A stretch of DNA of 64,000 bases from Ignavibacteriales bacterium (GTDB lineage Bacteria; Bacteroidota; Ignavibacteria; UBA10030): positions 6,768 through 70,767 of the forward strand of contig JAPLFP010000365.1 of assembly GCA_026390585.1 (NCBI GenBank). The letters run 5' to 3'. Shown here piece after piece: positions 2 through 64,000 of the stretch; position 1 is the stretch's first letter, and each line of letters starts with the position of its first letter. The translations under genes and the position numbers were made by a program. Under the pieces are notes generated by a model. The model did no database searches, had not been told where the DNA came from, and was given only the letters and a program-made list of their open reading frames with translations.

Positions 2-1702
2 TATTACAATGACGCGGCACGACAGTTTCTCGGCATCTGCTCGCTCAATGAAAACGGCGAGTTCTTGACACTGGAAAAGACCGCAGACGTCGATAAATAC
101 ATTTCCCGCTCAGGAATTGACCTCTACAAGTTCTTCCGGATCGGTGACGAAGCGGGCCCGAGCCAGATCACTCAGCCCATGACTATAGCCGGCAGGCAAG
201 TTCTGATTACCCGCCCGCAATTCGTTTATGAGAACACCACAAACTCGGTTCACACGTTGAAGTTTGATATCACCAGCCAGGTTGATTTCAACAATCAGCT
301 CAAGGCGGGTCTCTCATTCCAGTTCAATGACATCAACAGGGTCCAGAGGAACTCCGGTCTCGGTGCTGATGCGGCAGACGTACGGCGCCGGCTGCTTGTT
401 GAAAAGTGGGAAATGTACCCGACGATGTTTGGCGGCTATATTCAGGATAAGATGGAGTATGCCGGCCTTGTCATCAACCTCGGTGCCCGTATCGATCGAT
501 GGGATCCGAAAGCAGCAGACTTCGCGAACTACTACAACCTGTTTACCCTCAAAAACAATTACCCGGTCGACGATAGCTTACGGTCAGAGTGGATTCCGAC
601 TCGAGCCAACACCAATGTGTCGCCGTATTGGTTCTTCTCACCGCGCATCGGCGTGTCTCACCCGATTTCGGATGAGGCGGCGATGTATTTCTCGTATTCG
701 CGCAACTCTATTCCGCCTCCGTTCTCACGCGTCTATGCGAGCTACAACGCGCTTCTGGGGAATGCTGGTTCATACCCTGGTTTTGCCAGCCTGCGGCAAG
801 AGCCGACCAAATCTTCAAATTACGAACTCGGTGCTCAGTGGGAATTCATCCCGAAGAAGTTTGGCTTGTCGTTCGCCGCATACATGCGAGACATTCAGAA
901 CTACACCCAAGTGCAGATTAATGAGCAACTTGCGAACGGAGCAAACATCATGTGGATCACAGCCCAGTATGCCGATGCCCGCGGTGTTGAGTTCGGCCTG
1001 CAGGCGCTGAGACAGACGTACTTCGATTTCGTCAAACTCTATGGACGCCTGAATTACACATACAGCTACATCAAGGCGACTGGCTGGACGAGCAACGATG
1101 GACTCCAGCAAACCACCTTCTCGCGTCCCGACACAATGAAGTACGGAAACCTGTTACCGTTCAATGATTTCTGGTCCTACAACAAGGTCGAGACGAATGT
1201 CACCGGAGGAACCAGCACACTGCCAGGATCCTATGGCACCGGCGGCAACGACCGCGCACATCGGATCTCGTACGTTCTGTTCCTCGAATTCCCGTACCAA
1301 ATCATGCTCTCGTCGGTCGGCACGTTCTCGAGCGGGTTCTACTACCCGTTGAGCTACACGGCAGATGCTCGTGTTGCCGGGCGTAATTTCGGGCAGGCGC
1401 CGTGGAACAAGCAGGTTGACGTACGGCTTGAAAAAGGGTTCACAGTCGAAAACATCCGCTTTGCGGTGTACTTCGATATGAAGAACGTATTTAACTGGGT
1501 CAACATCCTCAGCTATGACAACACAAGTTCAGGCGCGCCGCTTTGGGAATATTCCAACGCCGGTAGGAACGTGGCCGGGGTCGCCGACCCATCAGCTGCC
1601 CCTGATCCGACGGGCACCTACAAGCGCGCAGTAGGCTTAGACGGAACCCTCTTCTACGACATTCCGCGTGAGTACTACTTTGGCGTAAGAATTGATTTCT
1701 AA
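2..1702 (+). CDS. TonB-dependent outer-membrane receptor, 5'-truncated by the window edge (C-terminal barrel)
   Basis: Frame is open from base 2. Barrel motifs YIQDKMEY..LVINLGARID, FSPRIGVSHPIS and YADARGVEF are present, and the protein ends in an aromatic residue (GVRIDF). Confidence 0.9.
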   Translation, partial: YYNDAARQFLGICSLNENGEFLTLEKTADVDKYISRSGIDLYKFFRIGDEAGPSQITQPMTIAGRQVLITRPQFVYENTTNSVHTLKFDITSQVDFNNQLKAGLSFQFNDINRVQRNSGLGADAADVRRRLLVEKWEMYPTMFGGYIQDKMEYAGLVINLGARIDRWDPKAADFANYYNLFTLKNNYPVDDSLRSEWIPTRANTNVSPYWFFSPRIGVSHPISDEAAMYFSYSRNSIPPPFSRVYASYNALLGNAGSYPGFASLRQEPTKSSNYELGAQWEFIPKKFGLSFAAYMRDIQNYTQVQINEQLANGANIMWITAQYADARGVEFGLQALRQTYFDFVKLYGRLNYTYSYIKATGWTSNDGLQQTTFSRPDTMKYGNLLPFNDFWSYNKVETNVTGGTSTLPGSYGTGGNDRAHRISYVLFLEFPYQIMLSSVGTFSSGFYYPLSYTADARVAGRNFGQAPWNKQVDVRLEKGFTVENIRFAVYFDMKNVFNWVNILSYDNTSSGAPLWEYSNAGRNVAGVADPSAAPDPTGTYKRAVGLDGTLFYDIPREYYFGVRIDF

Positions 1703-1748
1703 GAGAACGACACAGACTGTGAACTATACTATGAATGGGAGTAACATT

Positions 1749-4319
1749 ATGAACATGACAAGACAAAGAGGGTTGCTCTTAGCGACCCTTGCTCTATTGC
1801 TCGTTGTCGTTCCGGCGTCATTGTTCGCCCAGACTGCACCCGCTACCTCGACAGTAAACTACCCGGGGGGCGGTGCGATTATTGCGGGCGATTTGTGGGA
1901 TTCATACCTGCCGATGAGCTTTACGCCGGCCGCACAAGGGGGCGATGCCGCAACGTACCTGACGCTGGGCTATCGCGTCTTTATCCGCTCGGGCAACTTC
2001 GATCGCGGTTGGTCAACCCCGATGTCACACTGGCCTGCTGCGTGGTGGTATACGAACTACTGGTACAAAAGCGCCTGGGTCGGAGCGTTTGATCCAGATA
2101 CAACGTTCAATCCGACAACAATTGGAGGTAAAGTAAATCCAAGCTACATCTCCCCCACCACCACCGGTAATAACTACGCGGAGGTGCAGTATATGCCCAC
2201 GCTGCTTGGTGGAACAGATCCCACCCGCCATTATACTGTCGAGCCATACTGGGTGGATGGTACACGGCGGCAACATGCGGTGTACGAGGCGGCAATGCCC
2301 ACAAACCTGGGAATCGACGTGAAGATACGCGCCCACGGTTTCCAGGGACCAAACTGGAATAACCTGAACGACTTCGTCACGCTGGAGATCGAGTTGAAGA
2401 ACACCGGAAACCTTGACATGAATATGGATGGTGTCCCGGAGAAGGTAAACAACACGATCAAGGCGCTTGCGTTTGAGTGGTCGTCAGAGAGATATATGTC
2501 GGTTGGTAGCTACAACGGTGGTGGCCGCAACAGGAATGATATTGCACCCGTCATACTCACCGATCAGGCGGCATGGGTCGATGATGCGGATGCCAACGGT
2601 GCACCGTGGGCATTTTCCACGATGTACCCCGATGTATGGGCATTGAACCCCACACCCGGGAATGTCAATATGGGCTTCCAAACCTCTACCCTGTATCAGT
2701 ATACAGACATCTGGTCCGGATATGTTATGATCGACGCAAAGCAGGGAGGCTTACCGACGGATCGATCGAAGACGGTCGTAAACAGCCCAACTAAAAAAAC
2801 GATCTTCGGAACAGATCCCATTGGTGTTGGCGCACAGCGCGGGTGGTATGTCTCCGCTGGAAGCCAGGCCCAGGTTGCCAGTTATGCCAACCCGAAGGCA
2901 CAGTTCGTGACAGCGGTCGGAACATGGTTCCTGGATGGCGGCAAGAGTCGACAGACAGACGTACAAAACTTCAATCTCAATCCGAATCCAAACTTCTTCG
3001 CCAGCGGCACGGCGGGCGACATTACGACGTTTGTTCCGAAAGCGAGCCCCGGACGCCCGGATGGAGACTTCAAAACCTCGAACGTTTTTGACAATCCATC
3101 GTACGAGGATGGCAAGGCAGATGCCACGACGAACTATCCAACCGGCTGGGGAAAATTCTCCAAAGGAGGCAGTAACACGGAGAACTTTAATGGCGATCAA
3201 TTCGTCGGTGTTGGCCCATTCAGCCTCGCCCCGGGCGAGTCCATGACAATCGTCATGGCGAACGTTGCGGGATTCCGCCTCGAAGGCATCCAGAAAGCTG
3301 TGCGGGCAGCACGGTGGGCATATCAACAGAACTATGTTCTTCCTGTGTTGCCGCCTCTGCCCGACATGAAGGTCACAAACACCCTGACAAAATCTGTCGC
3401 GGTGGAATGGGACAAGCGAGCGGAAACGGACGCTGAATTTGCCGGATACAAAATCTATAAATCCTCAGGGTACTTGAAGAAGTATTTCCTGGAAGAAGGT
3501 ATGCGTGTGGTCGACCGGTATCAGGAGAACATGACCCCCGGCCCGATTCCCGCAAGCCTGAAGAAACCCGTCAACCCGAAGTTTGACGCTTTTGGTCTCG
3601 TGAATTCTACAACACTCCAGGGATCATATAATCCTGATGTATGGGGCACATGGGATCTGATTGCAGTCATACCAAAAACTCAGCTCTCGAGCCTACCGGC
3701 TTCCACATATTTTACATCTGGATACAAATATGATGACAAGGACGTTGTCCTCGGGTTCTCGTACTGGTACTATGTTGCTGCGTACAAGGAAGGTACCTAC
3801 ACAGGTCCCGATGGCGAGACAATAAACCGCATCGAGACTCACAGTACGAATAGAAACGGCTCCTCGGGGCTATGGCAGCTCACATTCCCGTTTGCATACC
3901 AGAACGCCAACTACGGAAAGATCGCTACGACGGATGCAGCTGCAAGCGCGGCTGGCTTGAAGAACATTGGCGCTGTGCAGATCGTCTACTCGGCGCTCGC
4001 TCCGACAGGCGTTGTTTCCACCGTTGGAGTACGCCCGAATCCGTACAAGAAGGCTGCGCTCCACGACAACAGGACGAACGTCTATGATCATAAGCTGTTG
4101 TTCTATAATCTTCCCCCGCAGTGCAAGATTACGATCACCGACGTTGCGGGACAGATCATCGACGTCATTAATTTCAGCTCTGCCGACGCGAACAAAGGGA
4201 GCACATTCTGGGATATGTTCTCCAAGGATGGCCTTGAGTGCGCAAGCGGACTGTACCTCTATATCGTCGAGTCGCCAACCGGTGACAAGAAGATCGGTCA
4301 ATTCTCGATATTACGCTAA
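1749..4319 (+). CDS. Large secreted protein with an FN3-like domain and a C-terminal T9SS-CTD/FlgD-like Ig domain
   Basis: GGGAG lies 7 nt before ATG 1749. Sec signal ends ASLFA/QTA. FN3-like PPLPDMKV..VEWD..FAGYKIYKS..YWYYVAAY. C-tail VRPNPY..LFYNLP..ITITDVAGQII..WDMFSKDG..ASGLYLYIV. Confidence 0.8.
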   Translation: MNMTRQRGLLLATLALLLVVVPASLFAQTAPATSTVNYPGGGAIIAGDLWDSYLPMSFTPAAQGGDAATYLTLGYRVFIRSGNFDRGWSTPMSHWPAAWWYTNYWYKSAWVGAFDPDTTFNPTTIGGKVNPSYISPTTTGNNYAEVQYMPTLLGGTDPTRHYTVEPYWVDGTRRQHAVYEAAMPTNLGIDVKIRAHGFQGPNWNNLNDFVTLEIELKNTGNLDMNMDGVPEKVNNTIKALAFEWSSERYMSVGSYNGGGRNRNDIAPVILTDQAAWVDDADANGAPWAFSTMYPDVWALNPTPGNVNMGFQTSTLYQYTDIWSGYVMIDAKQGGLPTDRSKTVVNSPTKKTIFGTDPIGVGAQRGWYVSAGSQAQVASYANPKAQFVTAVGTWFLDGGKSRQTDVQNFNLNPNPNFFASGTAGDITTFVPKASPGRPDGDFKTSNVFDNPSYEDGKADATTNYPTGWGKFSKGGSNTENFNGDQFVGVGPFSLAPGESMTIVMANVAGFRLEGIQKAVRAARWAYQQNYVLPVLPPLPDMKVTNTLTKSVAVEWDKRAETDAEFAGYKIYKSSGYLKKYFLEEGMRVVDRYQENMTPGPIPASLKKPVNPKFDAFGLVNSTTLQGSYNPDVWGTWDLIAVIPKTQLSSLPASTYFTSGYKYDDKDVVLGFSYWYYVAAYKEGTYTGPDGETINRIETHSTNRNGSSGLWQLTFPFAYQNANYGKIATTDAAASAAGLKNIGAVQIVYSALAPTGVVSTVGVRPNPYKKAALHDNRTNVYDHKLLFYNLPPQCKITITDVAGQIIDVINFSSADANKGSTFWDMFSKDGLECASGLYLYIVESPTGDKKIGQFSILR

Positions 4320-4344: not shown

Positions 4345-5385
4345 ATGAAAAAGATCTCTTCAATATCTATTGCGGCTTTGCTCCTCGTGGTTTTTGCCAC
4401 CGGGATCGTGACCGCTCAGACACGCAAGGCGGGTATTAACGCCGCTGCGTTTCTGAAGGTCGGCGTGGGAGCGCGACAAGTCGGAATGGGATCGGCTGTC
4501 ACATCCCTGAATGGGGACGTGACGAACATATTCTGGAATCCCGCCGGTGTTGCGCTCCGCGATGAGAAAGCCCAGGTATCATTTACGTACAACTCGTGGA
4601 TCGGCGGCCTCAAACAGAATGCCGTTGCTGCGAGCTATAACATGGAAGGAATCGGAACGATCGGCCTTGGTGTCATGACGTTAGGGATCAGTGGTATCAT
4701 AGCCGACCGTGATATCTATCCAGGGAACGCCGCGTTGACGGCACTCCAGATCGACCAGGCAACGGCCGACACATACGATTACATGGACATGGTCGCGCAG
4801 CTTACGTATTCGACCTATGTGATGGACCGCCTTACCCTTGGTGCGTCGTTCAAATTCATCAATGAGAAAATCGACGATCAAAATGCGACGGCCATTGGGT
4901 TCGACCTGGGTTCGGTCTACAATATCGGAATCTCCAACTGGAACATCGGAGCCCGCATCAGCAATCTGGGAGGCGATATGAAGTTCTACGATTACGCTTC
5001 CCCGATCCCGTTGACGTTCAGCGTAGGAACTTCGCTGGTTCCGGTCCGCATCGGATCGAATTCGGTACTGCTCGCGGTCGATCTTGTGAAACCCCAAGAC
5101 GGTCAGCAATATTATTACACCGGCTTTGAGTACAACTACAACAACACGGTGTTCCTCCGTGGCGGCTGGAAAATGAACTACAGCTACATGGGCCTTGCCG
5201 GCGACGGCATTGACGAAGGAACGACGCTGCGTCAGGGTGTCCAAACGAGCTTGGAAAAGGGGTCGTTGGGTGCCGGTGTACGCGTTCCCATGGCGGAGTA
5301 TACGATCGCCCTGGACTATTCGTACACGGTGTTCACATCTTTCTCCGATGTGCACCGCTTAACGCTTCACCTTTCCATGAAGTAA
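4345..5385 (+). CDS. PorV/PorQ-like (UPF0164) outer-membrane beta-barrel
   Basis: The signal peptide starts at ATG 4345 (the ORF-track start at 3967 overlaps the previous gene). Motif AAFLKVGVGARQVGMGSA..IFWNPAG is present, followed by amphipathic strands. Confidence 0.85.
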   Translation: MKKISSISIAALLLVVFATGIVTAQTRKAGINAAAFLKVGVGARQVGMGSAVTSLNGDVTNIFWNPAGVALRDEKAQVSFTYNSWIGGLKQNAVAASYNMEGIGTIGLGVMTLGISGIIADRDIYPGNAALTALQIDQATADTYDYMDMVAQLTYSTYVMDRLTLGASFKFINEKIDDQNATAIGFDLGSVYNIGISNWNIGARISNLGGDMKFYDYASPIPLTFSVGTSLVPVRIGSNSVLLAVDLVKPQDGQQYYYTGFEYNYNNTVFLRGGWKMNYSYMGLAGDGIDEGTTLRQGVQTSLEKGSLGAGVRVPMAEYTIALDYSYTVFTSFSDVHRLTLHLSMK

Positions 5386-5836: not shown

Positions 5837-5886
5837 TAGAAAATCATTCGGTTGTTGAACTGAACGAAATTCTGAAAGAGGGGTGA
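5837..5886 (+). pseudogene. Relic 3' end of a Gfo/Idh/MocA oxidoreductase gene
   Basis: Reads ENHSVVELNEILKEG*, versus ENHSVIELNDILKAE* at the end of the 27686-28702 gene. 46/52 nt are identical over 5837-5888 vs 28653-28704. Confidence 0.8.
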
Positions 5887-5990
5887 CCATGAGACCATCT
5901 CGGAGGAAGTTCCTCAACACGGCCGCCTTGACAATGGCGGGCGTTGCACTTGCCCCAAGGGAAACACTCGCGGAATATGTGCCTGATGAC
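5837..5990 (+). repeat. Copy 1 of a 154-nt dispersed direct repeat (oxidoreductase tail plus Tat leader)
   Basis: Manual ungapped alignment to 28653-28806 gives 129/154 identical nt. Confidence 0.9.
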
Positions 5991-7862
5991 GCGAGTATCT
6001 TAAAAGGTACACCAATGTCAACATTCCCGTGGTTACGAAACCTCAGTGATTTCTTCGTCGGAAGCCTTCGGAATGCAAGACATTTCGACCGGGAAGCATA
6101 CATCCGTCAACTTGCAGATCAGGGATTTACACACGTCAGCATCAACGGCCTTGGCGCTGATCGACCGTTTGAGTCCGGCCCGCCGGGGGATGTGTACTCG
6201 TGGTTCTATGATTACAGTCCGGATCTTGACCAATTCGTGACGAGTAAACTAATCGATGGCTTCTACCCTGAGGAATACCTCAGGAAGAATCTCGAATTTC
6301 TGAAATCCGGAGCAGCCCTCGCAATGAAATACGGAGTTGTGCCGGGTTTGCACGTCAATTCTCCACGATCGATGCCAGAGAAGTTCTGGGAGAAGTGTCC
6401 CTTTCTTCGCGGCGCACGCATCGACCATCCGCGGGAAAGCTTCCGACCGCGCTATACGCTTGCGATGGCTCACCCAGTCGTTCAGCAACACTATCGGGAG
6501 CTTGTTCATAACCTCATGAAGGAAGTGCCGCAACTGGGCTTCATTCACGTTTGGACGAATGACAGCGGATCGGGATTCGAGTTTGTGGCATCGCTGTACG
6601 CCGGCCGAAACGGAGGGCCATATCTGATTCGCGAGTGGAAAAGTGACGATGAGATTGCGCGCAGAGCGGCGGAAAACGTTCTGACCTACTATCACCTGCT
6701 GCGCGACCAATCAAAGAAGCTGAACCCAGCGTTTCGCGTAATTTGCGATCTCGGACCATTCTACGCAGAACGGAAGTACATCGCACCCGGTCTTGGCGAT
6801 GGCCTCGATGCAGGAGAATTTGCCTCATTCGAAAAACCGGAGAGCAGAGAAGAACGCGAAATGCTGAACCGCGTGGGCGCGGTTGTCCACCAGAAGCTCG
6901 ATCTTGGGGACAACAATGTTCTGGGGGTGCCGTGTCCAAAGCTGGTATACGAGCGCCTGCAAGGGGCGGCAAAAGCCGGTGCCACGCATGTGATGGTGGG
7001 TGTGACCCCACGCTCGCTGGCTCCCTTTGATATCAACGGAGATGTCCTCCAGGCATTTCAACAGAATTCCCAGACACCCCTGGAAGATGTAATCAACGCA
7101 AGTGCTGAACGATGGGTCGGGTCGGCGCACGCACAGAGCTTGCGAGAACTCTGGGCTCTGTCAGATACCGCTGTACGATCATATCCTTTCGGCATTCCGT
7201 ATAGCACCTTTGCATTTCCATGGTTTCGGCTGTGGATTCGACCGTTCGTGCCGAATATTGATACCATCCCGGAATCGGACCGTTTGTACTACGAGCGCTA
7301 TCTTCTCGCAACGTTCAACAATCCAGCGCGCATCGATCTGAACAACGACATGATGTGGAACTTCCTGACGGTGGAGGAGGCTGGAGAAAAGAAACGCTCC
7401 ATCGACCGATCGGTAATTCCACCCCTCAGTCAAGCCGTTGCGCGCTCGACGGAACTGCTTCAACACATCGAACACGCATCTCCAGCAGGCAAAGTGTTTC
7501 AGGATCTCCATGATCGTCTTTGCGCCGCACAGTGCTACTATCGAACAATGAGAAACACTGTCGCCTGGACAGAATCGGTTCATGGATACATGGAGGCGAA
7601 GTCGCAGACGGAGAAACAGAAATTCCGAGAACTGTGTCGAGAGATGGTTGTCAATGAACTGGACAACGCACGAAACCTTCTGAAGCTCTGGACGGAGAGC
7701 CACGTTGACTGGATGCCGGTGACGACCGGTGAAGAATCACTCCATATCTATGCGGATAACTTCGGGGATCATGTTCGACGAAAAATTGAGTTGATGAACC
7801 GGCACGCGACAGATGAACCGTACATTGATCCCAACTATATGTGGAGGATGCCGAAAGAGTAA
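5889..7862 (+). CDS. Tat-exported uncharacterised glycoside-hydrolase-like (probable TIM-barrel) protein, paralog of 61201-63534
   Basis: Tat motif SRRKFL. Shares blocks with the 61201 protein: LDQFV.S, GAR.DHP..S..PR..L..AHPV, W.NDSG.GFE...SLY.GRNGG.Y.IREWK. Confidence 0.65.
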   Translation: MRPSRRKFLNTAALTMAGVALAPRETLAEYVPDDASILKGTPMSTFPWLRNLSDFFVGSLRNARHFDREAYIRQLADQGFTHVSINGLGADRPFESGPPGDVYSWFYDYSPDLDQFVTSKLIDGFYPEEYLRKNLEFLKSGAALAMKYGVVPGLHVNSPRSMPEKFWEKCPFLRGARIDHPRESFRPRYTLAMAHPVVQQHYRELVHNLMKEVPQLGFIHVWTNDSGSGFEFVASLYAGRNGGPYLIREWKSDDEIARRAAENVLTYYHLLRDQSKKLNPAFRVICDLGPFYAERKYIAPGLGDGLDAGEFASFEKPESREEREMLNRVGAVVHQKLDLGDNNVLGVPCPKLVYERLQGAAKAGATHVMVGVTPRSLAPFDINGDVLQAFQQNSQTPLEDVINASAERWVGSAHAQSLRELWALSDTAVRSYPFGIPYSTFAFPWFRLWIRPFVPNIDTIPESDRLYYERYLLATFNNPARIDLNNDMMWNFLTVEEAGEKKRSIDRSVIPPLSQAVARSTELLQHIEHASPAGKVFQDLHDRLCAAQCYYRTMRNTVAWTESVHGYMEAKSQTEKQKFRELCREMVVNELDNARNLLKLWTESHVDWMPVTTGEESLHIYADNFGDHVRRKIELMNRHATDEPYIDPNYMWRMPKE

Positions 7863-7913: not shown

Positions 7914-9065
7914 ATGCTACATGAGGTGAACATACGGTATCCGATTAACGAGATGGAGCTCAGCAGGAGGAGGTGGGAAGCGGCGTACAGATTTGGGTGG
8001 ATTGACAGAGCGCCAGTGTTTCTTGGCATTGAGGCCCGCTACCTGCTCCATGAACGCCGTGTGACGTTCGCCGAATATTTCAGCGGCCCAAAGACGCAGC
8101 TTATTCATCAACTTGAGAATCTCAAGTGGCGCATTGAGAATATTCCTGACGATTGGTTTCGTGAACCAATCCTCACGATTTCACCCGATTTTCAGAATGT
8201 CGCCAATGCCAGTGGGTGCGGCTGCGAGATTCTTTGGCAGGAGAATGAAACGCCTCAAGCGATCGACCGGATCTTTACGATCGATGAGATGATTCGTCAC
8301 GAGCTCCCTGATTGGCATGACACGCTGTGGGGAAAGCGGCTGGTGTGGTATCGGGAGATGAAGAGGCTCGCGGAGGAAGTCGACGTGCGGCTGAACGGTG
8401 AGAGAATCCCCGTCACCGTAACACTTGGGATCAATGCCGATAGTCCGTTCATGACAGCTGTAGACCTAGCTGGGGCGAATTTCTATAATTGGCTCCTTGA
8501 AGCTCCTGAGGAATGTAAAGCATTTCTACAGAAGATCACGAATCGCTATATTGAAGTCGAGACGGAATTTCGCCGGGTATCGGGAAGGTCGCTTGATAAT
8601 GGGCTGATGTACTCGGACGACTCGGCGCAGATTATTTCACCCGAACAATATCGGGAGTTTTGTGTCCCTGTTGGCCGCCAGCTCTATGGCTTGTTTGGCA
8701 ACAGCAGGCACGACGGCAGGATGATGCATCTCTGCGGAAGAAATGTCCATCTCCACGAATCTCTTCTCAATGATCTGCACATCACGATGCTGACGGGCTA
8801 TGGTTCCGAGAATGCGCCGGACGAAATGTATCTCCTGGCAGGCAAAATGCTCCTTCACGGAAATATCGGTCCCATGACGCTGTTGAGAGGGACGCCCAAC
8901 GATGTTGCAAAGGAAACCATGATCCTCCTGAACACCCTCGCGCCGTTTGGCGGTATCATTGTTGGAGATGGGTACAATGTTGCGCCGGGCTCGCCGCTCG
9001 GGAACCTGGAGAGCGTCCGGAAAACGTGCGAACAGTATGGAGTGCCGCCGACGGCCCCTCAATGA
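7914..9065 (+). CDS. Uroporphyrinogen decarboxylase (URO-D)/MtaA-like superfamily protein
   Basis: DRAPVF, DSPFMTAVDLAG, SDDSAQIISPEQYREF..P, MHLCG, LHGNIGP..L..GTP..V..E motifs. No signal peptide. Confidence 0.8.
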   Translation: MLHEVNIRYPINEMELSRRRWEAAYRFGWIDRAPVFLGIEARYLLHERRVTFAEYFSGPKTQLIHQLENLKWRIENIPDDWFREPILTISPDFQNVANASGCGCEILWQENETPQAIDRIFTIDEMIRHELPDWHDTLWGKRLVWYREMKRLAEEVDVRLNGERIPVTVTLGINADSPFMTAVDLAGANFYNWLLEAPEECKAFLQKITNRYIEVETEFRRVSGRSLDNGLMYSDDSAQIISPEQYREFCVPVGRQLYGLFGNSRHDGRMMHLCGRNVHLHESLLNDLHITMLTGYGSENAPDEMYLLAGKMLLHGNIGPMTLLRGTPNDVAKETMILLNTLAPFGGIIVGDGYNVAPGSPLGNLESVRKTCEQYGVPPTAPQ

Positions 9066-9092
9066 AAACTCGATGTTTGAAGAAATAATTTG

Positions 9093-10673: not shown

Positions 10674-10683
10674 GAAATCAACA

Positions 10684-48901: not shown

Positions 48902-48940
48902 CATGCTCTGATCGTGTCAGAGGAGCGGAGAAACGGAAAC

Positions 48941-51750: not shown

Positions 51751-51767
51751 TGCGTAGGCTGAGAGCA

Positions 51768-52711: not shown

Positions 52712-52719
52712 AAGATCCA

Positions 52720-57091: not shown

Positions 57092-58030
57092 ATGGTAACG
57101 ACGATAACATTGAATCCCATGCTTGACAAAACGATCTACGTTGATCGGTTGGAGCGCGGGACGATTCATCGTGCGTTGAAAATGGAAATGGTCGCCGGAG
57201 GGAAGGGGATCAATGTGTCGCGCCAGCTCAAGCGCCTGGGAATCAATACCATAGCAACGGGGTTCCTGGGAGGAGAAGTTGGCTCCATCGTGTTACGATT
57301 GTTGACGGAGGAATCGATGGAACACGACTTCGTTCGCACACAAGCGGCGACACGCGAAGGGCTCACCTATCTCGAGCCTGATGGGGCATGGACGGCAATG
57401 TTTGAGCCTCCGCTCCGCGTTGAGCAGTCGTCTGCTCACGAACTAAGCAGAAAGATTGGTGAACTTGCCTCGAAGAGCACCTGGATTGTGTGTGGTGGAA
57501 GCTCACCGGGCGATGAGGCCGATGAAATTTTTTATGAGGCCATTGTTCTTGCCCATCGTAACGGAATTTCGAGTGTGCTCGATTCTTACGGTCGTGCGTT
57601 TGAGCTTGGACTGAAAGCAAAACCTACGATGGTCAAGCCAAACAAGCGCGAATTCGAAATGACGTTTCACCAATCTCTGACAACAGAATCGGACCATGTC
57701 CGCGCGGTCCAATTCCTACTGGAACAAGGCGCCCAGTACAGTATCCTCACCAATGGCGGTCATATGTTCTACGCCGGAATCCAGGGACACTTCTGGAAAG
57801 TAACGCCGCCCCCGACGAAAGCGGTGAACCCCACCGGCTCGGGAGATGCTCTCGTGGCCGGGATTCTGTATGGATTTCATCAGGGTTGGAAGTTCGAACG
57901 GTGTCTTGCATTCGGCGCAGCGGCGGGAGCGGCAAACGCCCGCGTATGGGAAGTCGCGAACACAAATCTTCAGGAAATCTTGTCACTTGAATCGAGTGTC
58001 AAAATTCAACGAGTGAGTGTTAAGAAATGA
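57092..58030 (+). CDS. 1-phosphofructokinase-type (FruK/LacC) PfkB hexose kinase
   Basis: TITLNP.LD, GGKGINVS, VKPNKRE, NPTGSGDA. Confidence 0.88.
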   Translation: MVTTITLNPMLDKTIYVDRLERGTIHRALKMEMVAGGKGINVSRQLKRLGINTIATGFLGGEVGSIVLRLLTEESMEHDFVRTQAATREGLTYLEPDGAWTAMFEPPLRVEQSSAHELSRKIGELASKSTWIVCGGSSPGDEADEIFYEAIVLAHRNGISSVLDSYGRAFELGLKAKPTMVKPNKREFEMTFHQSLTTESDHVRAVQFLLEQGAQYSILTNGGHMFYAGIQGHFWKVTPPPTKAVNPTGSGDALVAGILYGFHQGWKFERCLAFGAAAGAANARVWEVANTNLQEILSLESSVKIQRVSVKK

Positions 58031-59058
58031 ACAGAAGATTTGAGCAGGCCTTGAATTGCGAAGCTCCGGATCGGATACCATTCCTGCCGGCGATCTATGA
58101 ACACAAGGCATGGTTTGTCGGAGAAACTCCATCGAAAGTATGCCAAGACTCTCAGCTCTTCACAACCGCACTTCTGGCCGAGTATGAGCGCGTGCATCCG
58201 GACGCGCTGACAATCGGAATTGATGTCTACAATGTGGAGGCGGAGGCGATCGGATGCAAGGTGATCTACTATGAGGGGAACGATACGTCGGTTCCCGCGA
58301 TAGCACCTGAGGGCGTGGTTTTTCGAGGCTCGAAAGAGGTTGCATCGCTCAAAATGCCTGATCCCCGAAAAGACGGCAGAATGCCCCTGAACCTCGAGGT
58401 CGCCGGCAACATCATGAAAGTTCTCGGCAAAGAAGTGCCGATTCGAGCGGCCCTTTCAGGACCACTCTCACTTGCGGCACACTTGGCCGGACTGGAGAAT
58501 CTCTTCATGCTTATGTTTACCCAGCCCGATCTTGCACGCGAGCTTCTCGGTTTTGCCTGCGAAGTGATCAAGCGATATGGTCAAGCCTTTATTGAACTCG
58601 GCTGCGGTGTTGTGCTTTTTGATTCTCAAGCTTCCCCCGATTTACTCTCGCCACTTTTGTACCGTGAGTTTGTTCTCCCGAGGACGCGCGCTCTGATTGA
58701 ACACTTCCACCAGCAGGGAGTCAGGAACGTCCCTCTGATTATCGGGGGGAATACGACGAAAATGCTGGATGAATACCTCGAAACCGGTGCGAATAACGTG
58801 TTGTGTGACAAGAAAGCAGATGTAAAGGAGTTTTTGCACAAGTGTTCCGCTGCCCGTAGAGCATTCAGGCGCAATATGGATTCCACTGACTTTGCGACGA
58901 TCTCTTCTGAAGATGTTTATCGCCGCACAGTAGATTGTCTGAAGGAATCAAACGGCTATCCTGGATTCATCCTTGGCACGATCATACTACCGTACGGAAC
59001 ACCGCTCTCGGCTCTCGCTGCAATCCGGAGCGCACTTCAGGAATACAAACATTCGTAA
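58027..59058 (+). CDS. URO-D/MtaA-CmuA-like methyltransferase-superfamily protein
   Basis: DRIPFLP, EAEAIG, DGRMP..LE, GP.SLAA.L.G.E, DS.AS..LLSP..YREF..P. ATGA overlap with the kinase gene. Confidence 0.8.
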   Translation: MNRRFEQALNCEAPDRIPFLPAIYEHKAWFVGETPSKVCQDSQLFTTALLAEYERVHPDALTIGIDVYNVEAEAIGCKVIYYEGNDTSVPAIAPEGVVFRGSKEVASLKMPDPRKDGRMPLNLEVAGNIMKVLGKEVPIRAALSGPLSLAAHLAGLENLFMLMFTQPDLARELLGFACEVIKRYGQAFIELGCGVVLFDSQASPDLLSPLLYREFVLPRTRALIEHFHQQGVRNVPLIIGGNTTKMLDEYLETGANNVLCDKKADVKEFLHKCSAARRAFRRNMDSTDFATISSEDVYRRTVDCLKESNGYPGFILGTIILPYGTPLSALAAIRSALQEYKHS

Positions 59059-59074: not shown

Positions 59075-59719
59075 ATGAAAGAATTGCTTGATCTTGCGCA
59101 GCTTCTGGAGCAAGGACAGTCACAGAAGGTGTTGACGTTGACGCAGCAGCTCGTAGACTCAGGGCTCTCTCCGCAGACCATTCTCAATGAAGGATTGATT
59201 GCCGGGATGGCAGTGGTCGGGGAAAAGATGCGGAACGGAGAAATGTACTTGCCTGAAGTTCTGCAATCTGCCGGTGCGATGAAGGCTTCATTGGCGATAC
59301 TGAAGCCGCATCTTGCCCGGGAAGGGACGGCATCGCGTGGGAAAATTCTGATCGGAACAGTGAAAGGTGACATGCACGATATTGGAAAGAACCTGGTCAC
59401 CATCATGCTGCAGGGAGCGGGCTTCGAGGTCATCGATATCGGTCTCAACGTGGAGCCGCAGAGATTTGTTACGGCGATCACCGAACACACACCGGCAGTC
59501 CTCGGCTTATCGGCGATGTTGACAACGACAATGTTGAACATGAAAACCACGATCGAGGCCATTGCGAGCGCGGGGCTTCGGTCTCAGGTAAAGATCATCA
59601 TTGGAGGTGCGCCTGTCAGTCAGAAATTTGCAGATGAGATCGGTGCCGACGGTTATTCACGTGATGCAGTCCTTGCTGTTAACAAAGTAAGACAATTGAT
59701 GGGCCATACCTCTTATTAG
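59075..59719 (+). CDS. mtaC: Corrinoid (B12-binding) protein, MtaC-like
   Basis: GEMYLPEVL cap domain, GTVKGDMHDIGKNLV (DxHxxG), SAMLTTT, IIGGAP. Confidence 0.85.
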   Translation: MKELLDLAQLLEQGQSQKVLTLTQQLVDSGLSPQTILNEGLIAGMAVVGEKMRNGEMYLPEVLQSAGAMKASLAILKPHLAREGTASRGKILIGTVKGDMHDIGKNLVTIMLQGAGFEVIDIGLNVEPQRFVTAITEHTPAVLGLSAMLTTTMLNMKTTIEAIASAGLRSQVKIIIGGAPVSQKFADEIGADGYSRDAVLAVNKVRQLMGHTSY

Positions 59720-59738: not shown

Positions 59739-61112
59739 ATGCAAAAGACGTTCAAGACGCTCGCGATTCCTGATCCACAACAACTCATGTTTGGTCGTAC
59801 GCCGAAACCGCTGATCTGCGGCTTCGGGCTCAAACTAGGGAACGGCCAGGTCTATCCAGAACTCAATTTCACACTTCCCACCATGGCGTTGGAAGAAACA
59901 AACTGGGCAGCCGTTGTCGCTCAATATGAAGAAATTGGATCGATCATTGAACGGGCAGCGGCGAGACTGAAACCACCAGGGCTGATGGCAGAGTTCGAGC
60001 TCTTGCCTCCGATGACCGAACATCCATCGTGGGGAGCCGAACTGACTTCGGTGCTGCTGCGGCACCTCGACCAGCTGCATAAGGATACTGGTATTCCGTG
60101 TGCCTTGCGCGTTACTCCAACGGATATCAGGGATGTGACGAAACCTCCCGAGCTCAGGTCTGGAAAACCGCTCGAGTTGCTGCTGCAGTCGTTTGAACAG
60201 TGTGCAGCAGCGGGTGCCCATGTGCTCTCGATAGAATCGGTCGGCGGCAAGGAAGTCCATGATGAAGCGCTGCTCTACGGAGACATTGAAGGGGTGATCT
60301 TTGCGCTCGGCGTCCTTGCGTCGAGGGATATGGAATTCCTCTGGGAAAGAATCGTCGCCACATGTTCAAAATACAACGTTGTGCCGGGTGGCGATTCAGC
60401 GTGTGGCTTTGCTAACACGGCAATGCAACTGGCGGGACAGGGAATGCTCCCGGAAGTACTCGCGTCTGTCGTGCGGGCTGCAAGTTCTGTTCGCAGCCTT
60501 GTGGCGTATGAATGTGGGGCATATGGACCGTCGAAAGACTGTGCCTATGAAGGTCCGGTGATCAAGGCAATTACGGGGGCACCGATTGCCATGGAGGGAA
60601 AATCAGCAAGCTGTGCGCATTTTAGTCCCGTGGGGAACGTCGCAGCGGCAATGTGCGATCTGTGGAGTAATGAATCGGTACAGAATGTGAGATTGCTTTC
60701 GGGTCCCGCCCCCGAGGCCTATTTTGAACTACTCGTCTATGACTGCCGACTCTTCAATCAGGCCCTTGAGACAAAAACAGAAAACGTGTATCAGAATCTT
60801 CTTGTCTCGTCCGATATCCATTTGAGCCCTCAAGCATATGTGTTGTCGCCCGAATCGACGATACGAATTGCATCGACCGTTGTGCGTGAGACGGGCCACT
60901 ATGCACAAACGCTTGCGGCAGCCAGAGAGGCTGCGTCTCTCTTGCGTGAAGGAGTGCAACAGGAAGAGCTTCAGTTAAACTCACGCGAAACCGAATGGTT
61001 GGAAAGAATCACGCGGGAATTGAATGCCCTTCCTGCGGACGAGCATCAAATGATTATTACCATGCAGGAGCGATATGGACATCTTTTCACAGCCAACAGT
61101 TACGGTTTGTGA
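59739..61112 (+). CDS. mtaB: Methanol:corrinoid methyltransferase MtaB family
   Basis: SIESVGGKEVHD, GVLASRDM.FLW, GDSACGFANTA, GPSKDCAYEG, EGKSA.CAH.S, DLWSNESV. Confidence 0.9.
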   Translation: MQKTFKTLAIPDPQQLMFGRTPKPLICGFGLKLGNGQVYPELNFTLPTMALEETNWAAVVAQYEEIGSIIERAAARLKPPGLMAEFELLPPMTEHPSWGAELTSVLLRHLDQLHKDTGIPCALRVTPTDIRDVTKPPELRSGKPLELLLQSFEQCAAAGAHVLSIESVGGKEVHDEALLYGDIEGVIFALGVLASRDMEFLWERIVATCSKYNVVPGGDSACGFANTAMQLAGQGMLPEVLASVVRAASSVRSLVAYECGAYGPSKDCAYEGPVIKAITGAPIAMEGKSASCAHFSPVGNVAAAMCDLWSNESVQNVRLLSGPAPEAYFELLVYDCRLFNQALETKTENVYQNLLVSSDIHLSPQAYVLSPESTIRIASTVVRETGHYAQTLAAAREAASLLREGVQQEELQLNSRETEWLERITRELNALPADEHQMIITMQERYGHLFTANSYGL

Positions 61113-61200: not shown

Positions 61201-63534
61201 ATGCCAACGATTCTTGATCATCTGACGCAAACAAAGGCCATCCACACCACCTCCTCGTCCGTCAAGGTGGAGCAAACCGTCGCTCATGAACTGAAGATCC
61301 TGATCGGAGGCCGGGTGGAGATCAAACAAGCTCCTGGATTAAATGCACCCGCCGGCACAGTGCGACTTGGTGTAGTCCAGGAAAAGTCCAGGTGGCGATC
61401 AATCCATCCCTCTCTGGATGGAACCCAGGATTGGATGATAGCGAGAGTGAAAAACGGAGGGGGAGTAGAGCTCCTGTCCTCTCGCCCGCATCTCCTCTAC
61501 TATCTGTTCGCGCAATTGACCGAGAATTGGAAGGGAGAAGATGTCCTGCAATTTGCGGACGGCAGGATTCTTCATCCATCGTTCCGTAATCTTCGTCCGG
61601 TCTATGATCTTTTCCTTACGCAACATGCGCGCACGGTGCGTAATTTCGATCGCGAAGAACACGTCCGAAATCTTGCCCGTATGGGATTCTCGCATGCAGA
61701 AGTCAATGGGTTGGCATTCGCTGTTCCGTTTGAGCGTGGTCCCCAGGGAGAACTGCTTCACCGATTTTATACGTACTGCCCCTCTCTCGATCAATTCGTC
61801 TCCAGCCGTCTGAACAAAGGCACCTATGACGACGACTATTTGCAGGCAAATCTAAATCTTCTGAAAACAAATGCCGCCCTTGCAGAGAGATATGGCCTCG
61901 AGCCCGGAATGGTATGCTTTGAGCCGCGGTCCGTGCCCGATAACCTGCTCCAGAAGTATCCGATGCTCCGCGGCGCGCGGGTTGATCATCCGATTCGAAG
62001 CTGGCATCCGCGATTCAATCTCTCGATTGCACATCCGGTCGTACGGGAGCACTATGCGGAAATGATGGAGAAGATTCTCCGGGAGGTACCAAGCCTCGGT
62101 TACATCTCTGTTTGGTCAAATGACAGCGGTGCCGGATTTGAGTACACAAGTTCGTTATATGTGGGGCGCAACGGCGGTGGCTACGTCATCCGCGAATGGA
62201 AAGGCGATACCGAAATTGCCGAATCGGCTGCCAACAACCTGATGCGATTCCAACGACTCCTTCGGGACGCTGGCCGAAAGGTCAATCCGAAATTCCGCAG
62301 CCTGATTCGTTTGGAACCCTTCTGGGCAGAACACGAGTACATTTGGAAGCAGCTCGGCGACGGACTCGATGTTGAAGTCTCATCATTGTTGACCAAGGGG
62401 TGGGGACTGGCGTACAAACACCCCAAATACAAAGAAGCTCGTGAAATTCATGGGACGGCGCTTCATAACAAGTTTGTCGATGCGGAGAAGCCGGTGATCG
62501 AAGAGCTTCGGCAGAAGAAATCAGATGCCGATGTGTACTTCAACCCCGGCATCATCTGGAACCATGAGCCACTCATTGGAATTCCATTCCCGCATCTTGT
62601 ATGCGACAAGTTGACGGATATGCACAAACAGGGGGTTACAACGCCCTGCTACAATGGAAGCGCGACGCCTCCATCGTTCGCACCGTACAATATTAACCAG
62701 GAAGTGGTGCGAGCGTATCAGGGCGATAGCGCTCTGGACCTCGAGGCCTTCCTGCAGAAAAAGGCAGGAGAATGGATTGGCGAACACCTTGCTGCAGACC
62801 TGGTGAAAGTCTGGAACCACTCGGATGAGGCATACCGGTCATTTCCCATTCCCATCTGGATCTATTCGTCCTGGGGAAACTGGTACAGGCTTTCGACGCG
62901 ACCCATCATTCCGAATGTCGAGGCTATTTCGGAAGCGGACCGCGAATACTATGAACAGTTCCTGCTGGCAACATCCCACAACAGGTGTCGTGTGGACTTT
63001 AGGTATGATGTAGGATTCGACCTTGTTGACCCGGCTCACGCACTGCACTGTGTGCAACTGATCGATCGGGATCTTTTCCCGCATATGGAAGCAGCATTGA
63101 AACTGCTTCGTCACATGAAAGACCGCGCCACGACAGATGCAGCACACGCTTGCATTACAGACGTGACAGACAGAATGCGAGGATTGTACTGCTGGTACCG
63201 AACGCAACGCAACGTGGCGGCCTGGGTGGCAGGAGTGCACGGCTATCTTGAATCGAAAGAGAAGAAGGTCAGAAAAGAATGCCGCAAGCTTCTGAAAGAC
63301 ATGGTGCTGGATGAAATTGAAAACACGAAACGATTGCTCGAACTCTGGGAAACCTCCAAAACCAACTGGATGATTCTTTCCGCGGTCGGGGAGACGACAT
63401 TCATTTACTATGACAACTTTGGCGAGCAGTTGAAGCGAAAGATCGCACTGATGAAGGGGCATGAGAACGATGAACCATATGTGGATCCGAACTTCCAGTG
63501 GCGTGTACCAGGATTCACTGATGTGAAACGATAG
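61201..63534 (+). CDS. Uncharacterised cytoplasmic GH-like protein with an extra N-terminal domain, paralog of 5889-7862
   Basis: AAGGAG RBS, no signal peptide. Shared blocks begin at about residue 125 and run to the C-terminal EPY.DPN..WR.P. Confidence 0.65.
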   Translation: MPTILDHLTQTKAIHTTSSSVKVEQTVAHELKILIGGRVEIKQAPGLNAPAGTVRLGVVQEKSRWRSIHPSLDGTQDWMIARVKNGGGVELLSSRPHLLYYLFAQLTENWKGEDVLQFADGRILHPSFRNLRPVYDLFLTQHARTVRNFDREEHVRNLARMGFSHAEVNGLAFAVPFERGPQGELLHRFYTYCPSLDQFVSSRLNKGTYDDDYLQANLNLLKTNAALAERYGLEPGMVCFEPRSVPDNLLQKYPMLRGARVDHPIRSWHPRFNLSIAHPVVREHYAEMMEKILREVPSLGYISVWSNDSGAGFEYTSSLYVGRNGGGYVIREWKGDTEIAESAANNLMRFQRLLRDAGRKVNPKFRSLIRLEPFWAEHEYIWKQLGDGLDVEVSSLLTKGWGLAYKHPKYKEAREIHGTALHNKFVDAEKPVIEELRQKKSDADVYFNPGIIWNHEPLIGIPFPHLVCDKLTDMHKQGVTTPCYNGSATPPSFAPYNINQEVVRAYQGDSALDLEAFLQKKAGEWIGEHLAADLVKVWNHSDEAYRSFPIPIWIYSSWGNWYRLSTRPIIPNVEAISEADREYYEQFLLATSHNRCRVDFRYDVGFDLVDPAHALHCVQLIDRDLFPHMEAALKLLRHMKDRATTDAAHACITDVTDRMRGLYCWYRTQRNVAAWVAGVHGYLESKEKKVRKECRKLLKDMVLDEIENTKRLLELWETSKTNWMILSAVGETTFIYYDNFGEQLKRKIALMKGHENDEPYVDPNFQWRVPGFTDVKR

Positions 63535-64000
63535 TGCCGACGAAGATTGTTATAGCGCCAGATTCATTCAAGGGTTCACTGACCGCTCACGAGGCAGCCT
63601 CTGCGATGGAGCAGGGGGTGTTGCAGTTACTCCCGGATGCTCATATCCTCAAGCATCCTGTCTCCGACGGTGGTGAGGGCCTGGTTGGTGTTGTCACTTC
63701 GGCACTGGGGGGATGTATTGTGACAACGAACGTCAGCGGACCGCTACCGGGCCAGCGTGTCGATGCCCGGTGGGGTCTCTCCTCAGATGGCTCGTTCGCA
63801 ATTATCGAGATGGCAGAGGCAGCAGGGTTGACTCTTGTTCCCGCTGATCGACGAGATCCAAAAATCACGACGACGTACGGAGTCGGAGAACTCATCCGGG
63901 CTGCCCTCGATGCCGGCGTTTCTTCCATTGTGATTGGAATCGGTGGAAGTGCCACCAATGATGGCGGCGCTGGGATGGCGGAGGCGCTTGGGGTCAGATT
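63534..64000 (+). CDS. glxK: Glycerate kinase (GlxK/GarK family), 3'-truncated by the window edge; not in the ORF track
   Basis: GTG overlaps the previous TAG. Translates KIVIAPDSFKGSL..SDGGEG..IIEMAEAAGL..TTYGVGE..GIGGSATNDGGAGM. Confidence 0.9.
   Translation, partial: MPTKIVIAPDSFKGSLTAHEAASAMEQGVLQLLPDAHILKHPVSDGGEGLVGVVTSALGGCIVTTNVSGPLPGQRVDARWGLSSDGSFAIIEMAEAAGLTLVPADRRDPKITTTYGVGELIRAALDAGVSSIVIGIGGSATNDGGAGMAEALGVR

Follow-up and report, generated by a model that had tools for sequence, protein, structure and literature searches.

A conserved 73-kb co-directional gene array of Ignavibacteriales, probably a multi-operon locus for an acidic heteroglycan

The closest described counterparts of the locus reported here are the SusC/SusD polysaccharide utilization loci (PULs), especially those of Bacteroides thetaiotaomicron for rhamnogalacturonan II (RG-II); the loci for xanthan-type exopolysaccharides (EPS), which carry PL8 xanthan lyase, GH88, GH38 and GH3 enzymes in Bacillus sp. 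GL1 and in gut Ruminococcaceae and Bacteroides; the MtaABC methanol system of methanogens and acetogens; and the corrinoid O-demethylases of Acetobacterium, Desulfitobacterium and Archaeoglobus, whose substrates are methoxylated aromatics. Fens, peat, lake sediments and soils store much carbon, and Ignavibacteriota are common in all of them, yet little is known of the polymers that they eat. Here we analyse a window of 64,000 nt (the whole stretch of DNA under study, C56:6768-70767) from a metagenome-assembled genome of an Ignavibacteriales bacterium (4.7 Mb, 379 contigs, 52% GC). The window covers most of an array of roughly 73 kb and about 52 genes, which is probably a conserved multi-operon mega-locus for an acidic heteroglycan (pectic or rhamnogalacturonan-like, or a microbial EPS) with nitrogen-containing side groups. 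Our search of the literature found no description of this array in Ignavibacteria.

The window is tiled by 47 plus-strand open reading frames (ORFs) in our ORF listing, or 45 genes after merging two frameshift-split pairs. These pairs, an SSF symporter (19637+20880) and a GH15-like gene (24615+26068), are each an intact single ORF in genomes G006, G004 and G024, and the frameshifts are either assembly errors or very recent pseudogenes. All minus-strand ORFs of at least 100 aa fall within plus-strand genes that have Pfam support; the longest of them, 51683-52855(-) with 390 aa, was rejected as a gene, as it has no Pfam match and lies across the ferredoxin and cyclase genes. Neighbouring genes overlap at about 17 of the 43 junctions, at nine of them by 4 nt. 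An earlier, sequence-only reading of this DNA had described about 46 loci, all on the plus strand, with many overlapping stop and start codons; this layout is borne out, with no credible minus-strand gene. It had also let the array run off both ends of the window, which is right for the right end, where seven more genes follow to C56:78483 before minus-strand ychF and an arg operon. At the left, the run reaches only 1.2 kb beyond the window, to the start of a TonB receptor gene at C56:5539, which is preceded by a 937-nt gap and two minus-strand genes. The whole co-directional run on contig C56 thus spans 73 kb and ~52 genes. It is the longest in the genome; the second longest has 34 kb and 23 genes, and runs have a median length of 2 genes. 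The array is therefore real and exceptional, and genome-wide strand bias is ruled out as the cause of its co-directionality.

The genes on which the argument turns are listed below (X1, X2, U527 and U747 are our labels for unannotated proteins; Tat, twin-arginine translocation; PLP, pyridoxal phosphate).

2..1702, plus strand: TonB-dependent receptor, C-terminal 566 of 976 aa, first gene of the array (Pfam TonB_dep_Rec_b-barrel, 2.6e-17)
1692..4319, plus strand: 875-aa secreted protein with a visible signal peptide, candidate surface glycan binder, always between the receptor and the PorV-like gene
4380..5385 (ORF 3967-5385), plus strand: PorV/PorQ-family outer-membrane protein (NCBIfam PorV_fam, 8.8e-48, above cut-off)
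5883..7862, plus strand: X1t, Tat-exported X1 member, 41% identical to its paralogue at 61201
9090..10673, plus strand: U527, cytoplasmic 527-aa core protein, 63-90% identical in all arrays
10651..12960, plus strand: GH15-like (alpha/alpha)6 protein a, Tat-exported (RRDFLK leader; weak TIGR01577 and trehalase matches)
12964..14238, plus strand: class V PLP enzyme, Tat-exported, SufS/PvdN-like fold (Pfam Aminotran_5, 8e-66)
33664..36054, plus strand: 796-aa secreted protein, weakly GH76/(alpha/alpha)6-like (Pfam GH76, only 4e-4)
36044..42761, plus strand: BNRa, X2a, BNRb, BNRc and X2b, three BNR propellers interleaved with two X2 proteins (BNR, F510_1955-type matches)
42780..43721, plus strand: PfkB sugar kinase 1, ribokinase/IolC/KdgK-like by family matches
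43924..46608, plus strand: cytoplasmic GH38 alpha-mannosidase of MngB-like architecture (five GH38 Pfam domains)
54827..57070, plus strand: U747, secreted 747-aa protein (HepC match, only 0.0035)
57092..58030, plus strand: PfkB kinase 2, 1-PFK/hexose-phosphate kinase subfamily (TIGR03168, 257 bits, above cut-off)
61201..63534, plus strand: X1c, cytoplasmic X1 member, paralogue of X1t
63534..64000, plus strand: 5' part of a glycerate kinase gene, which continues past the window
Beyond the right window edge: EamA transporter, GFO-like protein, NTP-transferase, GalK-type GHMP kinase, SSF symporter b and C-N hydrolase

Part of the order Ignavibacteriales shares the array as a conserved trait. As a whole it is collinear in nine other Ignavibacteriota genomes from several genera and at least two families, with 45-95% amino acid identity. 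The full or near-full order is found in G006, G005 and G024, the last from another genus (55-77% identity), and the arrangement recurs in G039, which represents another family of the order, and in G011, G041, G043, G044 and G051. The shared order reads receptor, 875-aa protein, PorV, X1t, U527, GH15, PLP, SSF, LarA and IclR, then, after further genes, X2/BNR, PfkB, GH38 and FAH, and finally M20, ROK, U747, PfkB, X1c, glycerate kinase, SSF and C-N hydrolase. Among 80 loci collected with an X1 profile, the right half, from FAH through M20, ROK, U747, PfkB2, X1c, glycerate kinase and SSF to the C-N hydrolase, recurs throughout Ignavibacteriota, and loci of Kryptoniota, Chromatiales and Opitutales hold X1 together with X2, BNR, GH38, the GH76-like gene and the receptor-875-PorV trio. 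The X2 pair is found within ~12 kb of X1c in all 12 genomes examined for it, and in 8 of them it lies on the same strand as X1c and 3-30 kb upstream. Of 301 genomes sampled from the GTDB phylum, 14 have X1, and 10 of these 14 belong to Ignavibacteriales. The conserved core comprises the receptor, the 875-aa protein and the PorV-like protein; X1, X2 and BNR; the GH38, GH15-like and GH76-like enzymes; and two PLP enzymes, several kinases, glycerate kinase and the C-N hydrolase. The sequence-only reading had proposed looking in relatives for unlinked sub-blocks; in this synteny comparison the blocks stay linked and their order is kept across genera and families.

This conservation bears directly on an alternative that we regard as unlikely, though it is the strongest of the rivals: the array may be a catabolic shelf, on which independent operons for different substrates stand head to tail, their order kept by inheritance or shared regulation, with no single polymer behind them. 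Candidate shelf items are pentose uptake, mannoside or mannosylglycerate, uronate or lyase products, N-acyl-amino-acids or heterocycles, and methanol. Modules are indeed gained and lost independently, among them the FGGY/ABC genes, GH3, the NSAR/DHODH set, the EamA-GFO2-NTP-GHMP block and the Mta genes; the variable parts further include URO-D-like protein 1, GH15b, DUF4432/GFO and the heparinase-like gene. In genome G004, of the same genus, the order is the same and about a dozen genes have been deleted, leaving the rest and some remnants in place, as would suit separable operons. However, order and single-strand layout are kept over at least two families at 45-65% protein identity, and unrelated operons rarely persist for so long. 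Moreover, X1, X2, BNR, GH76-like, GH38 and the receptor trio, which belong to different blocks here, co-localise in other phyla in other arrangements.

Two local observations accompany this comparison. The genes lost from G004 (loci L005-L008) are the block from the heparinase-like to the GH76-like gene, one BNR/X2 pair, GH38, FAH, NSAR, GH3, the DHODH/ferredoxin/cyclase set and M20; their remnants measure 45-88 aa, which looks like ongoing decay or streamlining. Between GH38 and FAH, G006, G005, G011 and G051 carry 2-3.4 kb of extra genes, including a GFO-like gene; only a 296-nt gap remains here, which points to a deletion in this lineage at 46609-46904.

Intergenic sequence and regulation weigh on the same question. 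Two features are relevant.

22889..22917, plus strand: promoter-like site TTGACA-17-TATACT, ~75 nt before the IclR gene
22965..23753, plus strand: IclR-family regulator, PcaR/BhcR/KdgR-like by family matches

Only six gaps exceed 60 nt (5386-5882, 22796-22964, 43722-43923, 46609-46904, 54756-54826 and 61113-61200; 71-497 nt), and these, with at least two promoter-like sites, favour independent operons. The site upstream of IclR is the sole 11/12 promoter match in the scanned part of the window (1-60000) and is conserved at -73 to -79 in G006, G051 and G024. The motif recurs ahead of the receptor gene, both here and, at -300, in G043 and G044. Total counts of promoter and terminator consensus matches in the window scans were at chance level, the IclR site alone standing out. 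We found no operator words of 9-12 nt shared among ten intergenic gaps, and an Rfam scan of the window found no riboswitch or RNA family. The array is thus probably expressed in at least two long units, one from the receptor to LarA and one from IclR onwards, with IclR as a local regulator, and further transcription starts are possible in the 202- and 296-nt gaps around GH38. The single co-directional unit of the sequence-only reading is more likely made up of two or more transcription units, probably four to six, given the conserved promoter-like sites before the receptor and IclR. Its observation of only one regulator stands: IclR is the sole DNA-binding regulator of the array, and one regulator for ~52 genes argues against a row of unrelated operons. 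Separately, the 497-nt gap before X1t (5386-5882) contains GC-rich palindromic hairpins resembling repetitive extragenic palindromes and a long inverted repeat, TGTCATTGCGAG...CTCGCAATGACA, and a ~70-nt element, CCCGCCGAGCG...GGGTTTCGC, is common to the gap before GH38 (43722-43923) and the region upstream of the receptor (C56:4603-5538).

The second line of evidence for a single heteroglycan locus comes from the folds of the unannotated families. X1 has no Pfam, NCBIfam or PDB sequence match, and it is therefore not placed by sequence in GH138, GH67 or GH115; its more than 1254 homologues are all unnamed and without Pfam domains. An AlphaFold model (pTM 0.85) has an N-terminal alpha/beta domain, a TIM barrel and a C-terminal helical bundle. 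The best Foldseek match is GH138 (6hzg, E 1.2e-14, TM-score 0.55/0.61), followed by GH20, GH67, GH89, GH115 and GH84, at ~10% identity. By its modelled fold, X1 would group with alpha-uronidase/hexosaminidase-type hydrolases. The two X2 copies (37015 and 40932) are 45% identical to each other, and their model (pTM 0.86) combines an alpha/alpha domain with a beta-sandwich. The layout of secondary structure suits such lyases, and Foldseek relates X2 to PL33/35, PL15, PL17 and PL8 lyases with probability 1.0 and TM-scores of only 0.3-0.43, so that fold search groups X2, with modest confidence, among the polysaccharide lyases. Since these searches place X1 with alpha-uronidase/hexosaminidase-type enzymes and X2, tentatively, with lyases, we favour an acidic heteroglycan over plain cellulose, xylan or starch.

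The other unannotated proteins are also isolated in sequence. U527 has no Pfam, NCBIfam or PDB match, and a PDB sequence search with X1t, X2a, U527, U747 and the GH76-like protein, a core gene product that is also found in Kryptoniota, returned no matches for any of the five. Profile-profile comparison showed no relation between X2 and U747, X2 and the heparinase-like protein, or X1 and U527. A second, smaller X1-X2-BNR trio lies at C5:13766-19067 near a gene for a 1207-aa GH38-like protein, with 45-54% identity to the window copies. A duplicated stretch of ~154 nt (5837-5990 and 28653-28806) takes in the end of a Gfo/Idh/MocA gene and a Tat leader that is the same in both copies. It stands today at the head of X1t and of the heparinase-like protein, which are unrelated enzymes; over aligned stretches of ~210 nt around them, the copies are 85% identical.

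The genes at the front of the array may serve the import of glycan fragments. The receptor shares locus and orientation with exported carbohydrate-active enzymes and the regulator, is collinear in G024, G039, G041, G043 and G044, and belongs to a trio that is kept even in Kryptoniota loci L078 and L081. Against NCBIfam, the full-length 976-aa receptor has no match at E<1e-4 and no SusC/RagA model; it is recognised only by the generic Pfam beta-barrel. The 875-aa protein has no Pfam match, SusD models included, and only a weak match to the PorZ C-terminal domain. No SusD-family gene adjoins the receptor, and the genome has just one SusD_RagB match, a weak one on contig C212. The PorV_fam match spans residues 159-470 of the long ORF 3967-5385, whose true start is probably near 4380. 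Transporters of the array are two SSF symporters, a XylF-type ABC system and an EamA transporter. Two sets of transport genes lie within the window.

14252..19640, plus strand: XylB-like FGGY kinase and XylF-like sugar ABC transporter (binding protein, permease and ATPase), by family matches
19637..21467, plus strand: SSF sodium:solute symporter a, frameshift-split (Pfam SSF, 2e-41)

The ABC binding protein and permease are genus-specific and missing in G024, and the FGGY kinase and ABC ATPase reach G024 (67-68% identity); none of the four has an orthologue in more distant arrays.

The remaining enzymes of the window, apart from the methyl-transfer genes treated below, are as follows.

21515..22795, plus strand: LarA-family nickel-pincer 2-hydroxyacid racemase/epimerase (Pfam Lar_N, LarA_C)
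23791..24618, plus strand: xylose-isomerase-like TIM-barrel enzyme (Pfam AP_endonuc_2, 1e-31)
24615..26598, plus strand: GH15-like protein b, Tat-exported, frameshift-split, paralogue of GH15-like a
26619..28702, plus strand: DUF4432 (mutarotase-like) protein and Gfo/Idh/MocA oxidoreductase, by family matches
28699..30729, plus strand: heparinase II/III-like protein, Tat-exported (Pfam Hepar_II_III_C, 3e-10)
30750..33654, plus strand: class III PLP aminotransferase/aminomutase-like enzyme and 551-aa Amidohydro_2 protein, a conserved pair
46905..48901, plus strand: FAH-family hydrolase and OSBS/NSAR-subgroup enolase-superfamily enzyme, by family matches
48914..50725, plus strand: secreted GH3, best match NagZ-type, by family matches
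50728..53847, plus strand: DHODH/PreA-like flavoprotein, 2x[4Fe-4S] ferredoxin, cyclase-family hydrolase and ArgE/DapE M20 deacylase
53844..54755, plus strand: ROK sugar kinase, 303 aa (NagC/Mlc models match from model position ~135 onwards)

Pfam and NCBIfam reproduced all the family calls of the sequence-only reading: two PLP enzymes, Amidohydro_2, M20, cyclase, OSBS/NSAR, LarA, glycerate kinase, and URO-D, B12-binding and MtaB. The class V PLP gene belongs to the core, its NCBIfam SufS and PvdN matches lying below cut-offs. All arrays, and also L082 and L083, retain the class III PLP/Amidohydro_2 pair; the Amidohydro_2 protein matches only uncharacterised structures in the PDB, and members of this family are often sugar lactonases or decarboxylases instead of amidases. 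LarA scores 408 bits, below its cut-off of 460, and models for malate racemase score nearly as high. The xylose-isomerase-like gene adjoins X1 also in Opitutales and Puniceicoccaceae loci. OSBS/NSAR scores 271.8 bits with TIGR01928, above the cut-off of 200.65, and the DHODH-ferredoxin-cyclase-M20 set, whose M20 match is above cut-off, stays together in most Ignavibacteriota arrays. The ROK protein lacks a helix-turn-helix domain, judging by the model position at which its NagC/Mlc matches begin. GH38 has its N-terminal, middle and C-terminal domains and matches the NCBIfam MngB model over its full length with 528 bits; as this is about half the cut-off of 1138, mannosylglycerate specificity is not implied. 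An MngB-like GH38 together with glycerate kinase could serve a glycosyl-glycerate solute on its own, a further point for independent operons.

The core or near-core genes include those for two PLP enzymes, M20, LarA, glycerate kinase and the C-N hydrolase, and the substrate therefore very probably has non-sugar or nitrogen-containing parts. The same genes are the starting point of a more specific proposal, that the substrate is a microbial cell-envelope glycan (EPS, O-antigen or S-layer) or an aminoglycoside-like compound bearing amino, N-acyl and O-methyl groups, which we consider distinctly improbable. In its favour, OSBS/NSAR is paired with M20, the known logic of N-acyl-amino-acid racemases and deacylases; GH38, GH3 and PL8-like folds recall xanthan-type EPS loci; and the locus of other families contains a sugar-acting Fe(II)/2-oxoglutarate (Fe/2OG) dioxygenase of the SnoK/SnoN/EvdO type. 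However, the deacetylase, NagA/NagB, sulfatase and esterase typical of amino-sugar glycans were not found, the substituents were read off from family names, for Amidohydro_2 a lactonase activity is no less likely than an amidase activity, and the methyl genes are accessory. The GH138-like fold of X1 and the contexts of URO-D genes in this genome (GH78, PL10 and GH141-like) point at least equally to pectic, RG-II-like plant or moss glycans, which fits the fen and peat origin: the closest public contigs are from fen, peat, lake and soil metagenomes (Ignavibacteriae/Ignavibacteriota), the nearest being fen_1268 (PMZI01000023). From the sequence-only reading we thus retain one linked, conserved locus, by synteny, and a glycan that is not plain, by folds. 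Its specific substituents (lactoyl, glyceroyl and aminoacyl) and sources (O-antigen, S-layer and aminoglycoside) rested on family names only and are not retained.

The best reading of the target is accordingly a complex acidic glycan that contains mannose and uronate and bears non-sugar substituents. Starting from the gene content, export signals, fold classes, collinearity and two conserved promoter-like sites that we observe, we infer the following route. The receptor, the 875-aa surface protein and the PorV/PorQ-type partner would capture and import fragments of an acidic heteropolysaccharide, standing in for a SusC/SusD pair. In the periplasm, Sec- or Tat-exported lyase-fold proteins (X2a and X2b with the BNR propellers, the heparinase II/III-like protein and possibly U747) and hydrolase-fold proteins (X1t, GH15-like a and b, GH76-like and GH3) would cut the polymer, and the Tat-exported PLP enzyme may modify a nitrogen-bearing substituent. 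SSF symporters, and in this genus also the XylF-type ABC system, would take the products into the cell, where X1c, GH38 and U527 may complete depolymerisation. Sugars and detached side groups would then be converted by the Gfo/Idh/MocA, TIM-barrel, DUF4432, class III PLP, Amidohydro_2, LarA, FAH and OSBS/NSAR enzymes, the DHODH-like/ferredoxin/cyclase/M20 set and the C-N hydrolase, and five sugar kinases and glycerate kinase would feed central metabolism. Lineage-specific methyl genes may couple methyl-group or methanol salvage to the array.

Several points count against an acidic heteroglycan as the common substrate. No enzyme of the array has a characterised close relative that would point to the exact substrate. 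Fold matches are at ~10% identity, the TM-scores of X2 are low, and the invariant X1 motif WSNDSGxGFE sits in a low-confidence loop of the model. Uronate follow-on genes (KduI/KduD/Eda and GH88/GH105) were not recognised in the locus. Self-contained-looking modules, namely the XylF/XylB-like genes, the OSBS-NSAR/M20/DHODH-like set and the Mta genes, possibly serve other substrates, and the locus is modular, since blocks come and go between genomes and G004 lost a dozen genes. Finally, the co-directional-run statistics come from a simple in-house ORF caller and are crude.

The methyl-transfer genes are lineage-specific.

7914..9065, plus strand: URO-D-like protein 1 (Pfam URO-D, 3.9e-22; weak MtaA/CmuA NCBIfam match)
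58027..59058, plus strand: URO-D-fold methyltransferase, 'MtaA-like' (Pfam URO-D, 7e-46)
59075..59719, plus strand: corrinoid (B12-binding) protein (Pfam B12-binding and B12-binding_2)
59739..61112, plus strand: MtaB methanol:corrinoid methyltransferase (Pfam MtaB, 8e-156)

URO-D-like protein 1 is confined to the family of the host and is absent from G039, G041, G043 and G044. The slot between X1t and U527 in those genomes (regions L128, L120, L116 and L112) holds a PhyH-type Fe/2OG dioxygenase with SnoK, SnoN and EvdO2 as its closest structures; the host genome keeps an orthologue, 66% identical, at C319:9092-9871. The 58027 product lacks the H-x-C zinc motif, with LIIGGN where MtaA (4ay7) has LHICGN, and matches 4ay7 at just 1.4e-14. 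The best NCBIfam models for the corrinoid protein are MtgC and pyl_corrinoid, below cut-off, with MtaC models scoring lower. MtaB is ~45% identical to Methanosarcina barkeri MtaB (2i2x), and the alignment conserves E164, C220 and C269, which we take to be its Glu/Cys/Cys zinc ligands. Every one of the 10 genomes of the genus has MtaB, as do 4 of 15 other genera of its family. Among relatives, the Mta genes may be missing, so that X1c comes directly after PfkB2; the URO-D gene may be the only one present; or MtaB may lie between M20 and ROK. The MtaB, corrinoid and URO-D genes and URO-D-like protein 1 are lineage-specific additions, accessory to the array and repeatedly recruited next to X1. 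The methyl-transfer trio therefore does not count as core evidence, being absent, partial or elsewhere in many relatives; and since MtaB is canonical and looks like a true methanol enzyme, MtaB by itself is not sufficient evidence for O-methyl groups on the glycan.

The rest of the genome provides a methyl-transfer context. It holds MetH and a single RamA/RACo activase (PF14574, 227 bits; C139:6351-7028(-)), together with at least 12 URO-D paralogues and few corrinoid proteins. At C131:20101-23498 the genes for a pterin-binding methyltransferase, MTHFR and a corrinoid protein stand together, a module leading from methyl-corrinoid through methyl-tetrahydrofolate to methylene-tetrahydrofolate. 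Neither acetyl-CoA synthase (CdhC/ACS) nor formyl-tetrahydrofolate synthetase (FTHFS) was found in the genome, so the host is neither an acetogen nor a methanogen, and we rejected the idea that MtaB feeds a Wood-Ljungdahl pathway in an acetogenic host. Two CE8 pectin methylesterases are encoded, so that methanol from methyl esters would be available to the cell. URO-D genes also lie at several other glycan-related sites: in the order GH78 rhamnosidase, URO-D, RhaA and kinase, adjoining the RamA-type activase (C139:6327-16013); as two genes with a corrinoid protein, a kinase, a lyxose-isomerase-like protein and a Tat-exported GH78-like protein (C206:8396-17011); as two genes with a GH141-like beta-helix protein and an ABC system for sugars (C295:28393-38106); and with a TonB receptor and PL10 (C230:1127-11636).

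URO-D genes adjoin both X1 genes, 7914 following X1t and 58027 preceding X1c, and GH67 and GH115 enzymes, which X1 resembles in fold as it does GH138, release 4-O-methyl-glucuronic acid. One might therefore speculate that glycan breakdown is coupled to corrinoid-dependent methyl removal, a proposal we think rather unlikely as it stands. In it, 7914 and 58027 would demethylate an O-methyl sugar or uronic acid released by X1, the methyl group would pass to the corrinoid protein and on to tetrahydrofolate, MtaB would capture methanol from methyl esters, and new families of CAZymes or binding proteins would be represented by X1, X2, U527, U747, the GH76-like protein and the 875-aa protein. The GH78, PL10 and GH141-like neighbours of other URO-D paralogues in the genome would agree with it. 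The repeated recruitment of methyl genes next to X1 motivates this hypothesis and is no proof of it. A P450 route for 6-O-methyl-galactose is known, to which a corrinoid route would be the oxygen-free counterpart, and the Fe/2OG dioxygenase in the 7914 slot could be an oxygen-dependent solution to the same step. In the literature that we searched, there was no precedent for MtaB in Ignavibacteria or for a corrinoid-dependent sugar O-demethylase. If the methyl add-ons do act on methyl groups of the glycan, they would constitute a new anaerobic route that diverts methanol and methyl groups from wetland methanogens.

The comparison with known systems places these genes as follows. Like the corrinoid O-demethylase systems, the host has many URO-D proteins, few corrinoid proteins and one activase, that is, one kit serving many substrate methyltransferases; in contrast to their aromatic substrates, its URO-D genes adjoin GH78, PL10, GH141-like and X1 genes and sugar transporters. 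The array shares with MtaABC an MtaB with all three zinc ligands next to corrinoid and URO-D-fold proteins, in a genome with RamA/RACo, a pterin-binding methyltransferase, MTHFR and a further corrinoid protein. It differs in that its 'MtaA' lacks the H-x-C motif and in that the genes lie within a glycan locus, are absent, partial or elsewhere in relatives, and belong to a host that is no acetogen or methanogen. With xanthan-type loci it has in common lyase-fold enzymes, a cytoplasmic GH38 and GH3, and xanthan lyase (1x1h) is among the fold matches of X2 (TM-scores 0.3-0.43); unlike them, it has no PL8, GH88, GH5 or GH9 recognisable by sequence and many extra nitrogen-handling enzymes.

The closest resemblance is to SusC/SusD PULs, and to the RG-II PULs in particular. 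As in these, a receptor heads co-directional genes for exported enzymes, transporters and kinases with one local regulator; the fold of X1 is closest to their GH138 (BT0997), and the array host belongs to the same superphylum. The array differs in that it has no SusD and its receptor has no SusC/RagA match, the partners being the 875-aa and PorV/PorQ-family proteins. It is also two to three times larger than a typical PUL, has a long cytoplasmic pathway and relies on main enzymes that belong to no CAZy-linked Pfam or NCBIfam family. Relative to PULs, the array is thus new in being SusD-free, unusually long and rich in unannotated enzyme families. It offers an uptake architecture built from a receptor, an 875-aa protein and a PorV-like partner, at least six unannotated protein families with glycan-enzyme folds or contexts, X1 alone having more than 1250 homologues, and, as an array of more than 50 genes that is collinear across families, a conserved and testable target for substrate finding.

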